A DNA stretch of 64,000 nt from Escherichia phage FL04. Within the stretch, counting starts at the first letter, position 1, and the number at the start of each line of letters is the position of its first letter. Under the pieces are notes generated by a model that ran no database searches, was not told the DNA's origin, and was given only the letters and a program-made list of their open reading frames with translations. This document shows positions 6,066 through 46,557 of the stretch, one piece after another. The stretch lies in the sequence record PP358550. One strand, 5' to 3'. The translations under genes were made by a program, and so were the position numbers.

Positions 6066-6094
6066 TTGACAATAAGAAATGGGAGTAGTAAAAT
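6066..6094 (+). promoter_or_regulatory. sigma70-type promoter with GGGAGTA/TACTCCC dyad around -10
   Basis: TTGACA 6066-6071, spacer 17, TAAAAT 6089-6094; palindrome 6081-6100. Confidence 0.6.
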
Positions 6095-42978: not shown

Positions 42979-43236
42979 ATGAGTCGAAGTTTTGATTTTA
43001 TGATCGCCAAGTGTCATCGAGAAAAGAAATCGATGGACCTGTTTATGAAATGTCTGAGGTATGAATATGCACACCTTCGTAAACACAAAATTGATCCGCA
43101 AGTTTCCTACGAAAACATCAAGAAATATGCGAAAGAAGTGATTGACAACGATTGCACCGTGACATATAATGCGTTTATTGATTTATGGGCGTGGGATGTA
43201 ATCTACGCAGAGATGGACAAAGAAGATTTTAATTAA
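42979..43236 (+). CDS. hypothetical protein
   Basis: AAGGAG RBS. Confidence 0.5.
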   Translation: MSRSFDFMIAKCHREKKSMDLFMKCLRYEYAHLRKHKIDPQVSYENIKKYAKEVIDNDCTVTYNAFIDLWAWDVIYAEMDKEDFN

Positions 43237-43250
43237 GTGAGGATTATATT

Positions 43251-45359
43251 ATGAAAATGCATATTGATAATGAAGAAGTATTTGGCAGTGACTTGAGCGG
43301 TGCGGTTGATTTTTCTCTGAAAGCAAGTAGCAAGGCTTTTATGGTGCTTTCTAAAAACACTTATCAATATTGTGAACGTGCTTGTGTCCGTGAGTATTCA
43401 TGTAATGCCACCGACACCCACAAAGAAGCCGGAACCTTAGATCGTCCGTTTGACATTCATTTACCGACTGCAATCGAACCGTATTTTTCTGTGCGCGATT
43501 ATGGTACTGGTATTCCGTCTAAGAAAGAATTAGAACAACTGTTTACGGTTTACTTTGAATCAACAAAAGACCAGACTAATGATTATATCGGATCTTTTGG
43601 TTTAGGTGCGAAGTCTGCTTATAGCTATACCGACACCTTTACAATCGTAAACTATTACAATGGTCGCGCTTATGGCTTTACGGCATTTGTGCAAAACTCT
43701 ATGCCGAAAATGGTGCAGATTTTCGACGAACCGACCTGTGAAGACAATGGTCTGAAAATCACTATTCCGGTGAAAGAAAAAGACATTCAGACATGGCATC
43801 GAGAAGCGCAATTTGTACTGCGTCATTTTGGGGAACACAAACCGAATATCAATGCAATCGAAATTAATTATTTCCCTAGCTTTGATAATTATTATGTTTG
43901 TAATGGGCGTGATAACGATTCCTATGTAGTATATGCAATCATGGGTAAGATCCAGTATCCGATCCCGTATGAATATGTTCGCGGAACATGGTTAGAAGCT
44001 GTAAACCGCCAGCACCAGACCATTTACATTAATTTTGAGTTGGGTGATCTAGACCTTATGCCATCGCGTGAAGAAGTTCACTTGTCAATTGAGACTAAAG
44101 CGAACATCGAAAAACGCATTGCAGAAATCAATGAAATGATGTTGGAAAAGGTTAAAGAAAAGATCGCCAACATTAAAACAGAGCGTAAACTTGCGCAATT
44201 TATGAGCGAGTATTCATCGACTCAACGCAATATTATTAGCAAGATGGGTAAGATCGGACAATGGGATGATCCGGTAGCAATCTATAATAAGTTTGTGAAT
44301 GCGGGTAAAGATTCGCCTAATGACGTAGAAGGTCAGGTGTATACTCTGTATCGTACTCGTCACACAATCAGTAAATTGCGCCCTGCTTTCGTTAGCAGTC
44401 AATACAACATTACGCATTTTGTATGGATGCATAAAGAAGATATTCTGTGTGTAATTGATGATACCGATAAACCGAAACTGCGTGCACTGACTCTTAACGG
44501 CATGGTCCAGGAATACGGAATCAATAAAAAGGTACTGGTGTTCCGTCAGCGCAACGAAAAACATATGGAGACTTTCGAGTACATCAAACAGTATTATGAT
44601 GATTCTGAAATGACCGTGATTAAGGTATCAGAGGCCGATGATCTGCGTGCTAAAGCAGTTAAACCGGAGAAGACCGAGCGTACACAACGTGAAGCTACTC
44701 CCAAGCTGCCTAACGTGTATATTATGGAAAAGATTGGTGACAGTTGGCATAAAACCAGCCATCACATGAAAGCGGCAGAGATTCGCGAGTTATCAGGCTT
44801 GCACATGTTCCGCGTAGGTGATGCATTCGAAAGCCGTAGTCGTAAATCGATCTATAGTGAAAATACATTACATACGGCGCTTGACTACTTCGGGGTAACA
44901 AAGTATATTATTACTCGAAACGAGACACAAAAATATCTCGTTGACGAACAATTGGAATGTGCGCTAGAATTTGTTCGCGGTAAGCTGGCTGGTCTGGCTA
45001 AGAAGGTTAAGACCAATCATCTGGGGTATGGCGAATATCTGGGTGTGATCACTATGTTGTTTCATGACGATGAACTAGAACGCTGTGTTCCAGAATTTAT
45101 TGACAGACTGTACGGTCGTCATTATAATAAAGAGGTTTCCAAGTTACTCCTTCGTACTCGTTGGATTATGGACGAAGAAACTAAAAAGATCTGTGATGAA
45201 AAATTCACGGCAGCAAACGAACGAATTAAAGCAGTTTGTGCGAAGTTTAAAGAGAATAGCCCGTTACTGTATGATATTGTAGATAACTGGTATCGTATTC
45301 TGCACAACGACAAACGCGCACAAGACTTTATGAAACTGGTTAAGAATGTTAAATTTTAA
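43251..45359 (+). CDS. rIIA: rIIA protein (membrane-associated, GHKL ATPase-like N-domain)
   Basis: 702 aa; GSFGLGAKSAYSYTDTF and IMGKIQYPI regions match T4 rIIA; lies after gene 39 as in T4. Confidence 0.85.
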   Translation: MKMHIDNEEVFGSDLSGAVDFSLKASSKAFMVLSKNTYQYCERACVREYSCNATDTHKEAGTLDRPFDIHLPTAIEPYFSVRDYGTGIPSKKELEQLFTVYFESTKDQTNDYIGSFGLGAKSAYSYTDTFTIVNYYNGRAYGFTAFVQNSMPKMVQIFDEPTCEDNGLKITIPVKEKDIQTWHREAQFVLRHFGEHKPNINAIEINYFPSFDNYYVCNGRDNDSYVVYAIMGKIQYPIPYEYVRGTWLEAVNRQHQTIYINFELGDLDLMPSREEVHLSIETKANIEKRIAEINEMMLEKVKEKIANIKTERKLAQFMSEYSSTQRNIISKMGKIGQWDDPVAIYNKFVNAGKDSPNDVEGQVYTLYRTRHTISKLRPAFVSSQYNITHFVWMHKEDILCVIDDTDKPKLRALTLNGMVQEYGINKKVLVFRQRNEKHMETFEYIKQYYDDSEMTVIKVSEADDLRAKAVKPEKTERTQREATPKLPNVYIMEKIGDSWHKTSHHMKAAEIRELSGLHMFRVGDAFESRSRKSIYSENTLHTALDYFGVTKYIITRNETQKYLVDEQLECALEFVRGKLAGLAKKVKTNHLGYGEYLGVITMLFHDDELERCVPEFIDRLYGRHYNKEVSKLLLRTRWIMDEETKKICDEKFTAANERIKAVCAKFKENSPLLYDIVDNWYRILHNDKRAQDFMKLVKNVKF

Positions 45360-45370
45360 GAGGTGATATT

Positions 45371-45502
45371 ATGACTAAACTGACCGCTATCCAGAAAGAA
45401 ACCATCCGTAAACAATACGCTCGCGGCTTGACTAAAGGCGAACTGGCACGAATCTATAATGTATCAGACCGCACAATCCGCAAGGTTGTAGAAGCAAAAT
45501 AA
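45371..45502 (+). CDS. small helix-turn-helix DNA-binding protein
   Basis: 43-aa ORF below track cutoff; AAGAGGTGATATT-ATG; GLTKGELARIYNVSDRTIRKV is a classic HTH. Confidence 0.5.
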   Translation: MTKLTAIQKETIRKQYARGLTKGELARIYNVSDRTIRKVVEAK

Positions 45503-45514
45503 TTCTGGTATAAT
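45486..45514 (+). promoter_or_regulatory. candidate promoter (extended -10) for rIIB
   Basis: TTGTAG, spacer 17, TGGTATAAT ending 45514; GC-rich dyad 45524-45542 in leader. Confidence 0.4.
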
Positions 45515-45564
45515 GATGTGAATCGGGCGGCGATAGTCGCCCAACTAATAGAGGAATGAATACT

Positions 45565-46557
45565 ATGACTAAAGCAAAAATCACCGTCTCTGACCGTAAC
45601 GTTCAATGCCTGGATTCTGCGAAACAAATCAAACTGGCTAAACAGTGGGGCGAAGGTAAGTTTACTACCCGCGAAGCACTTGCGGCAGCATTTGGTGTAT
45701 CTCGTCGCACTGCCTCCCGTGTATTACTGATTCAGAAAGACGCAGTAGCGGAAGGTCGCCAGGCACTAGAAAAACGTAAAGCACGCCGTAAAACCAGTAA
45801 AGGAAAAGGCGGTGAACGCGCAAAAAAGCCCGTGACTACTTCCTCAAAAATCGTAGCAATAGCCTCAACTAAGTTTATTACTATTACATGCGGTGACATT
45901 GTTTATACTGCTGATCCGTCGCATGTTAACTTTAATGAAGCACTGGAAGCGATTAAACATAATGATTTCATCAAAGCTATTACGCTGATTGACATTAAGA
46001 AAGCGGTTGAAGTATATTATCACGGCGCTTTCCGTATCGAAAATGGTATTGTGTATTATCATAATATTGTTCTTGATAATAATCTGACTCGTCGAGTTGT
46101 GGAGTCGATTAAAGAGAATAAGCCATATACGCACTATCTGAACTTCTTTGAGAAGTGCAAGAAAAACCCTAGCCGTAAGGCCGTAGATCGTCTATTTGAC
46201 TTCTTAGAGCACAACGACATTGAGATCGTGGAAGATGGTTGTTTCTATGCATGGAAACGTGTTGATGTTGATTATAAAGATTTCTTTACGCATACGTTTG
46301 ATAATAGCCCAGGTCGCACGGTTAAAATGAAGCGTAAAGACGTGGACCCAGATGATGATCGCACTTGCTCTAATGGACTCCACGTTGCAGCGAAACACTA
46401 TATTCCGCACTATGGCGGTGGACGAGGCCGAATCATTAAATGTAAAGTTGATCCGCGTCACGTTGTAAGTATCCCGAAAGATTATGCGAATGCCAAAATG
46501 CGCTGTCATCGTTACTATGTGGTTGAAGATGTGACCGAAGGGTTTAGCCATTACTAA
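45565..46557 (+). CDS. rIIB: rIIB protein
   Basis: Extended identity to T4 rIIB in C-terminal two-thirds (KAVDRLFDFL, TFDNSPGRTVKM, CSNGLHVA, DPRHVVSIPKDYANAKMR, VVEDVTEGF). Confidence 0.9.
   Translation: MTKAKITVSDRNVQCLDSAKQIKLAKQWGEGKFTTREALAAAFGVSRRTASRVLLIQKDAVAEGRQALEKRKARRKTSKGKGGERAKKPVTTSSKIVAIASTKFITITCGDIVYTADPSHVNFNEALEAIKHNDFIKAITLIDIKKAVEVYYHGAFRIENGIVYYHNIVLDNNLTRRVVESIKENKPYTHYLNFFEKCKKNPSRKAVDRLFDFLEHNDIEIVEDGCFYAWKRVDVDYKDFFTHTFDNSPGRTVKMKRKDVDPDDDRTCSNGLHVAAKHYIPHYGGGRGRIIKCKVDPRHVVSIPKDYANAKMRCHRYYVVEDVTEGFSHY

Follow-up and report, generated by a model that had tools for sequence, protein, structure and literature searches.

What is the short open reading frame (ORF) that separates rIIA from rIIB, which together make up one of the most famous loci in genetics, in Escherichia phage FL04? 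The stretch of DNA analysed (sequence record PP358550, 64,000 nucleotides (nt), called the window throughout) belongs to a Krischvirus, that is, an RB49/Phi1-like phage of the T4 type, and the ORF occupies positions 45371-45502 of it. The explanation that seemed best, and to which about an even chance is given, is that in RB49-like phages the small ORF makes up a third, functional gene at the rII locus, encoding a minimal, basic and monomeric tri-helical helix-turn-helix (HTH) protein that would act as a nucleic-acid-binding module of the rII system.

The small ORF and its conservation

The ORF, its ribosome-binding site and the two genes that flank it were located as follows, with product lengths in amino acids (aa).

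43251..45359, + strand: rIIA, 702 aa, the upstream gene; matches phrog_612 (RIIA) at E 2.9e-188, with weak GHKL ATPase matches
45358..45366, + strand: Shine-Dalgarno (SD) sequence of the small ORF, AAGAGGTGA, read directly from the sequence
45371..45502, + strand: small ORF, a 43-aa gene of the RB49/Phi1 ORF274 family (phrog_15481), with ATG at 45371 and TAA at 45500-45502
45565..46557, + strand: rIIB, 330 aa; identified by phrog_609 (E 3e-106), by PF26926 on its homologues and by the annotation in Phi1 and Sf20

A reading of the letters alone, made without database searches (the sequence-only reading), had placed here a 43-aa protein preceded by a strong ribosome-binding site and lying between rIIA and rIIB, and direct reading of the + strand agreed with it on all three points. 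The 43 codons translate as MTKLTAIQKETIRKQYARGLTKGELARIYNVSDRTIRKVVEAK, a product of 5.0 kDa and pI 10.4 with 11 lysine and arginine residues against 4 aspartate and glutamate residues, and the flanks match phrog_612 (E 3e-188) and phrog_609 (E 3e-106). The SD core, GAGGTGAT, is an 8-nt perfect complement to the 3' end of the 16S rRNA, with a gap of 7 nt from GAGG to ATG. The rIIA stop lies 11 nt before the start of the small ORF and, since the SD overlaps this stop codon (TAA, 45357-45359), translational coupling of the small ORF to rIIA is plausible.

The same reading had called the protein unannotated, which did not hold, as the ORF was missing only from the ORF track of that reading. At 95-99.4% identity, its region matches 58 phage records, which are without exception RB49-like Krischvirus (RB49, Phi1, Sf20, JEP8 and others); in these the protein is 98-100% identical and found at the same position. 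Essentially all related GenBank records with annotation list it as a hypothetical protein. The Phi1 record names it phi1p274/ORF274 (YP_001469618.1, 'hypothetical protein'), and the Sf20 record has it as Sf20_gp142, described as 'DNA-binding, homeobox domain-like; similar to phage RB49 gp274', which carries an InterPro homeobox-like note. It also has its own PHROG: phrog_15481 (function unknown) matches it over positions 1-43 of 43 (E 3e-34) and places it in the PHROG 15481 / RB49 ORF274 family. A literature search for a functional study of ORF274 or of the rIIB HTH yielded no more than a mention of rIIB, made in passing, among transcription factors.

Beyond Krischvirus, the lineages L003/L004, L012/L013 and L002 were compared, which together with the window make four diverged lineages. 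All of them share the gene order rIIA - small ORF - rIIB, and the length of the small ORF is 43-45 aa throughout. It begins 4-11 nt past the rIIA stop in the L003, L012 and L002 lineages, with equivalent SD sequences 10-11 nt past this stop in L003 (TGAGGTGA) and L012 (GAGAGGTAA) and a weaker one, GGTGA, in L002. A search of 5.8 billion proteins recovered five clusters of the small ORF, all 43 aa long and with 69-98% identity, while a further relative carries a 45-aa version.

The ratio of nonsynonymous to synonymous substitution rates (dN/dS, Nei-Gojobori method) was 0.13 between the window and L003, 0.33 between the window and L002, and 0.18 between L003 and L002. For these pairs dS was 0.8-1.6, so that the synonymous sites of the small ORF are near saturation. 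The segment spanning helix 2, the turn and helix 3, TKGELAR(I/V)YNVSDRTIR(K/R)VVE, is almost invariant across the lineages; the C-terminal 23 residues show one K-to-R exchange, located in the recognition helix, next to many synonymous changes that include a serine codon going from TCA to AGC. Amino acid sequence identities to the window were as follows.

Small ORF: L012 84%, L003 77%, L002 73%
rIIA: L012 44%, L003 42%, L002 38%
rIIB: L012 64%, L002 57%
gp52 (topoisomerase subunit): L012 73%, L002 67%
gp39 (topoisomerase subunit): L012 79%

The small ORF is among the best conserved genes of its neighbourhood and, as the substitution pattern indicates, it is a genuine gene under purifying selection, with a fixed place between rIIA and rIIB that all four lineages share. 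Conservation in relatives, which the sequence-only reading had proposed as a check, was found at the same position in each of these lineages, with dN/dS values of 0.13-0.33.

It is very improbable that the product is unimportant, whether the ORF is seen as a chance occurrence, as a decaying 5' fragment of rIIB or as a leader whose translation tunes the downstream stem-loop and the expression of rIIB. The shortness of the ORF would suit such an explanation, as would the promoter and stem-loop that lie just downstream of it and the truncated 32-aa variant, P0109, found in databases; moreover, its 3' end overlaps the -35 region of that promoter, so that part of the DNA conservation could be regulatory. 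Against it stand the dN/dS well below 1 with synonymous sites saturated, a protein segment that is nearly invariant despite codon changes, the fixed length of 43-45 aa, a confident HTH model (see below) and a degree of conservation above that of both rIIA and rIIB.

The P0109 entry itself (MTKLTAIQKETIRFHFSRGLTKCDVSRMYNFS) has the same first 13 residues as the small ORF and diverges thereafter; it looks frameshifted or mis-assembled. Stand-alone homologues P0203 and P0147 sit on contigs of ~2 kb and their gene context is uninformative. The scan of IMG/VR for relatives of the small ORF returned two Krischvirus or Krischvirus-like contigs only as close homologues; L011, from the same scan, was a false lead with an unrelated Xre-like HTH.

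The helix-turn-helix and the head of rIIB

The sequence-only reading had described the product as a textbook HTH, and both profile and structure predictions bore this out. Pfam CENP-B_N matched the small protein with 26.0 bits against a gathering score of 21.2, that is, above the curated threshold for a family of the HTH clan, while other Pfam HTH families (Sigma70_r4, HTH_28, HTH_7, Mor and others) remained below their cut-offs and matched the HTH part only. AlphaFold2, run on a six-sequence alignment, gave a model with a mean predicted local distance difference test (pLDDT) score of 90.7 and helices at residues 6-18, 22-28 and 33-41, a bundle of three helices whose second and third make up the helix-turn-helix. 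The best Foldseek matches of this model in the PDB were DNA-bound HTHs, namely those of the IS21 IstA N-terminus, gamma-delta resolvase, CENP-B and NarL/LuxR-type proteins, with template modelling (TM) scores of 0.72-0.79; the IstA HTH superposed best at TM 0.79 and a root-mean-square deviation of 1.0 A. For so small a domain, the Foldseek E-values do not reach significance. By these predictions the small protein is a three-helix HTH of DNA-binding type.

Other searches were less specific. A sequence search of the PDB with the family profile gave no match below E 0.2, NCBIfam returned generic HTH matches only, all sub-threshold, and phrog_836 and phrog_532 matched the small ORF only through their C-terminal HTH. 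Two classes of transcription factor were rejected as assignments. A sigma-70 region 4 or ECF sigma factor is excluded by the Sigma70_r4 score (21.1 bits, below the cut-off of 24.1), by the absence of regions 2 and 3 and by NCBIfam sigma models that scored far below their cut-offs. A Mor/C-type late activator is excluded by a Mor score of 17.6 bits (cut-off 24.9), obtained over profile positions 60-93 only, which are the HTH.

A family and positional link was found to the N-terminus of rIIB. An N-terminal HTH is present in 48 of the 70 rIIB homologues, that is, in every T4-type one except a truncated entry, and is lacking in the 21 most distant. A hidden Markov model of the rIIB N-terminus was made from 45 proteins, of which the first 70 residues were taken, a set chosen by the C-terminal domain and with this clade excluded. 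Against the 1026 six-frame segments of the window, it gave 39.5 bits (E 2e-11) for the small ORF and 25.2 bits for the N-terminus of this phage's own rIIB, all other segments scoring 8 bits or less. When the small ORF was compared by tblastn with 50,697 phage records, the first matches after the Krischvirus copies were the 5' ends of rIIB genes from T4-like phages of Klebsiella, Serratia, Enterobacter and Escherichia, the best of them 52.5% identical over 39 aa. On phrog_609, a profile of the rIIA-rIIB fusion, the small ORF falls on the same columns as the rIIB N-terminus, and the AlphaFold2 models of rIIB and of the small protein share the same 12/7/10-residue helix pattern.

The position of the two modules agrees as well. 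In other phages rIIB starts 0 nt (a Klebsiella phage) or 14 nt (Bp7) after the rIIA stop, so that the small ORF, which like those genes presents an N-terminal HTH module directly after rIIA, holds the position of the rIIB start and its HTH. In L002, rIIB (P0009; L002 4685-6064; 459 aa) carries three tandem N-terminal HTH repeats besides the separate small ORF, and is the only one among the 70 rIIB homologues with more than one HTH. Judged by these profiles, the small ORF is in the same HTH family as the N-terminal head of rIIB; that it derives from this head by duplication or fission we infer from where it lies and from the way the clade has expanded the repeat.

The small ORF was rejected as rIIB proper, as the conserved C-terminal domain (PF26926) is absent from it and sits in the next gene (45565-46557). 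A fusion of the small ORF to rIIB by readthrough or frameshifting was likewise ruled out: in no lineage do the two share a frame, and between them lie a stop codon, a promoter and a stem-loop.

The preferred reading, a third rII gene, could be envisaged as follows. The 5' HTH module of rIIB would have been duplicated or split off by a rearrangement mediated by promoter-early stem-loops (PeSLs, described below). The resulting small protein would be made early with rIIA through translational coupling and may serve as a free-standing nucleic-acid-binding module, doing in trans the job of the rIIB N-terminal HTH, which would be DNA contact for the rII system. The first segment of T4 rIIB (the B1 region of Crick et al. 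1961), which deletion r1589 takes away, is reportedly not needed for B function on K(lambda), and in 1977 Manoil, Sinha and Alberts are said to have found the rII proteins in membrane and in DNA-protein complexes. A bolder version is doubtful, namely that a 'third rII cistron' acts in trans through the 43-residue protein, an ancestral rIIB DNA-binding head split by insertion of a PeSL and linking phage or host DNA to the membrane-associated complex of rIIA and rIIB, or else that the protein is the long-postulated helper that binds PeSL stems.

Several results weigh against a specific tie to rIIB. BLASTP found no similarity between the small ORF and the rIIB of the same phage, the relation being visible with profiles only. 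With the rIIB-derived profile the small ORFs score 37-45 bits and generic HTHs up to 42 bits (median 22), which puts the small ORFs at the top of the range and not clearly above it; with the profile of the small ORF, rIIB N-termini score 24-33 bits, below endonuclease HTHs (up to 48.8 bits). A HMMER search of 1.84 billion representatives gave 304 matches at E<=1e-3. The module is widespread, and the best single-domain matches were the C-terminal HTH tails of NUMOD4/HNH_3 and GIY-YIG homing endonucleases, again with up to 48.8 bits. Since such an HTH is not peculiar to rIIB, the gene may instead have arisen from a decayed homing endonuclease or independently. Finally, in the three distant phages checked, which have an rIIB lacking the HTH, no separate small HTH gene was found beside it and rIIA was directly followed by rIIB. 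The idea that a small HTH gene accompanies such an rIIB is thereby ruled out in these three; the core rII system does not need the module, and there is no rule of an HTH supplied in trans.

The endonuclease-tail matches comprise the NUMOD4+HNH_3 proteins P0094 (48.8 bits), P0112, P0170 and P0178 and the GIY-YIG/T5orf172 proteins P0145, P0164 and P0086; stand-alone proteins of 49-60 aa also score well, and many of the matches carry 4-7 tandem copies of the module. Among the latter, metagenomic P0076-P0088 have 4-7 tandem HTH modules of ~40 residues joined by short basic linkers, some of them fused to GIY-YIG or HNH-type nucleases. The small ORF is not itself a homing endonuclease, since no catalytic domain is found in it or between rIIA and rIIB and the HTH tail alone is shared.

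These matches raise the alternative that a free-standing homing endonuclease (HNH or GIY-YIG, of the mob/seg type) once lay between rIIA and rIIB and that the gene is its domesticated HTH tail, the only part left, unrelated to rII and serving, for example, target-site occupancy or as a generic regulator. Intergenic homing endonucleases are numerous in T4-type genomes, endonuclease C-terminal HTHs provide the nearest single-domain matches beyond the family, and an HNH_3 gene adjoins rIIB in one distant phage (L031). Such an origin is nevertheless unlikely. The start of the ORF coincides with that of the HTH module, 11 nt past the rIIA stop and behind a strong SD, and no nuclease-derived sequence is left in any of the four lineages. 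The top endonuclease matches were picked from 1.84 billion sequences by their similarity, whereas the independently chosen rIIB set still gives 37-45 bits, and conservation at the level of core replication genes would be unusual for such a remnant.

Promoters, stem-loops and palindromes

The sequence-only reading had further suggested that the small protein recognises palindromes embedded in the promoters of this phage, and named two dyads. Both exist and are strongly over-represented in the window: GGGAGTA-N6-TACTCCC occurs in 5 copies against 0.07 expected, and GGGGATC-N3-GATCCCC in 2 copies against 0.02 expected. Every such dyad sits inside a TTGACA...-10 promoter just upstream of a gene. 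These palindromes are the published PeSL cassettes, and an explanation for them is already known: in RB49 and Phi1, PeSLs combine a strong sigma70-like promoter with a stem-loop (Arbiol et al. 2010, PMC2839356), which acts as an efficient terminator or attenuator in a reporter and as a recombination site, PeSLs flanking and shuffling small genes (PMC2839356; PMC4122927). The text of Arbiol et al. makes no mention of rII ('rII' has 0 occurrences) or of the small ORF (PMC2839356).

The window contains at least 10 PeSLs with at least 4 different stem sequences. In one class, at window positions 6066, 6977, 8212, 49879, 50898 and 51402, the -10 hexamer (TAAAAT, TAAGAT, TAATAT or TATAAT) lies in the loop of a stem GGGAGTA(T)/(A)TACTCCC. 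In L002, which carries the small ORF, the stems of this class are GGGGCTA/TAGCCCC and GGGTGTAT/ATACACCC, compensatory with respect to GGGAGTA/TACTCCC. That the stems vary with compensation while the recognition helix stays almost the same fits selection on a hairpin and not on a duplex operator.

In a second class, the dyad lies in the spacer between the promoter hexamers, TTGACA-GGGGAT-N5-ATCCCC-TATAMT. Its sequence and spacing are conserved in the window (2166, 11864, 19285 and 51179), L002 (1554) and L012 (2466, 8427 and 8899), which are the lineages with enough sequence for the check and which all have the small ORF; it was also located in L016, L018 and L021, and the large sequences that have it include IMG/VR contigs with lengths of 174, 360 and 366 kb as well as the ~350-kb Salmonella jumbo phages 7t3, Munch, SE_PL and PHA46. 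This dyad exactly fills the 17-bp spacer, which is unusual for sigma70 promoters, and it is not accounted for by an RNA hairpin in transcripts begun at the same promoter.

A small early transcription regulator that binds the PeSL dyads, repressing or modulating early promoters or aiding PeSL recombination, is quite unlikely on this evidence. It would be in keeping with the predicted DNA-binding-type fold of a very basic protein, with the excess of dyads, with the conservation of the spacer-class dyad in three lineages that have the small ORF, and with the speculation of the PeSL authors that a specific DNA-binding protein recognises the GGGG...CCCC stem (PMC2839356). Most stems, however, differ from one PeSL to the next in the window and from relative to relative, and the recognition helix hardly changes. 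In the large phages with spacer-class promoters no close homologue of the small ORF was found, all hits in phage records with at least 60% identity being Krischvirus. PeSLs are also reported in T4/PST and KVP40/nt-1 (PMC4122927), yet tblastn found no free-standing copy of the small ORF outside Krischvirus among the 50,697 phage records. No dimerisation element suited to a dyad is visible in the AlphaFold2 model, where the three helices use the whole 43-residue chain, and the terminator or attenuator role of the stem-loops has already been demonstrated. The protein is thus probably not a dyad-specific regulator of PeSL promoters. Of the proposal of a small early DNA-binding reader of palindromes, a genuine small HTH gene stands, and the promoters and the coupling to rIIA fit early expression; the palindrome role is not supported, given the variable stems and the lack of a visible dimerisation element.

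The following elements were found around the small ORF itself.

43142-43170: sigma70 promoter upstream of rIIA, TTGACA-17-TATAAT, 12/12 consensus positions
45100-45128: sigma70 promoter inside the 3' end of rIIA, ~245 nt before the small ORF, TTGACA-17-TATAAT, 12/12 consensus positions
45486..45514, + strand: sigma70-type promoter with extended -10, TTGTAG-17 nt-TGgTATAAT, -35 at 45486-45491, read directly
45525..45542, + strand: stem-loop GGGCGGC-GATA-GTCGCCC, 7 bp including one G-T/G-U pair, located downstream of the small ORF and ahead of the rIIB ribosome-binding site

Early expression of the small ORF together with rIIA is likely from this arrangement. The promoter inside rIIA is not conserved in the diverged relatives, and a candidate within the small ORF (TTGACT...TATAAT) was ruled out by its 21-nt spacer. 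The promoter at 45486-45514 overlaps the last codons and the stop of the small ORF and would give rIIB its own transcript; an automated scan left it out because its -35 hexamer matches at 3 of 6 positions only. At the same junction, L002 keeps this promoter, L003 has TTGACA-17-TACAAT with the -10 in the loop, and in L012 the promoter is degenerate.

The stem-loop at 45525-45542 is part of the minimum free energy fold of positions 45495-45575 (-18 kcal/mol, z-score -2.5), and stem-loops of 7-9 bp with unrelated sequence occupy the same place in L003 (z -4.6), L012 (z -3.2) and L002 (z -1.1). Promoter and stem-loop together form a PeSL-like unit that separates the small ORF from rIIB.

As for rIIB, the start chosen by the ORF lister (ATG 45556, giving 333 aa) falls within the SD AGAGGAATG, and relatives annotate ATG 45565, which has proper SD spacing; the latter is probably the true start. 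The AlphaFold2 model of rIIB has an overall pLDDT of 84, with the N-terminal HTH at residues ~21-59 (333-aa numbering) at pLDDT 96-97, followed by a long helix, a disordered and very basic linker (residues 81-96) and a conserved C-terminal alpha/beta domain. This last domain is confidently predicted, and Foldseek found no meaningful match for it in the PDB (best E 0.35).

Significance and comparison with known systems

The rII locus of RB49-like phages has a third gene, whose conservation far exceeds that of rIIA and rIIB and is close to that of the topoisomerase subunits. What is new here is the evidence for purifying selection on it, its high conservation compared with rIIA and rIIB, and the family and positional link to the N-terminal domain of rIIB; for annotation, the outcome is a real gene of uncharacterised function, next to palindromes already explained as PeSLs. 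High conservation together with membership in the family of the rIIB head suggests that this head can be separated as a module and that its partner is under strong constraint. rII counters RexAB, for which rIIB is needed, and triggers a gasdermin-type defence (bioRxiv 10.1101/2023.05.28.542683); rIIB has also been listed among phage-specific transcription factors and suggested as a possible negative regulator (PMC7824862). A peptide of 43 residues is easily synthesised and tested for DNA or protein partners. Should it prove to be a third cistron or a stem binder, it would provide a 5-kDa, synthesisable handle on the target of the rIIB HTH and hence on the mechanism of rII.

Among known systems, RB49/Phi1 ORF274 (phi1p274; Sf20_gp142; PHROG 15481) is the same gene at the same position, with no differences. 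The tri-helical HTHs of resolvase, IS21 IstA and CENP-B share their fold with the small protein; resolvase/Hin and CENP-B, however, gain affinity from an N-terminal arm in the minor groove or from a second HTH, and the small protein has neither. With the HNH (NUMOD4/HNH_3) and GIY-YIG homing endonucleases it shares the sequence family of the HTH tail, but not the catalytic domain. The PeSL cassettes are cis elements, and the unit downstream of the small ORF has the same design. The N-terminal HTH of T4-type rIIB, upstream of PF26926 (Phage_T4_rIIB), is the same three-helix module and likewise stands directly after rIIA; the small protein differs from T4-type rIIB in being free-standing and in another frame, with neither the linker nor the rIIB C-terminal domain, and has in common with the rIIB HTH the motif L-x2-x-Q-K-x2-I ... 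G-x-[ST]-K-x-[EQ]-L-A-x2-[YF]-x-V-S-x-[RD]-T-I-[RG]-[RK]-V.

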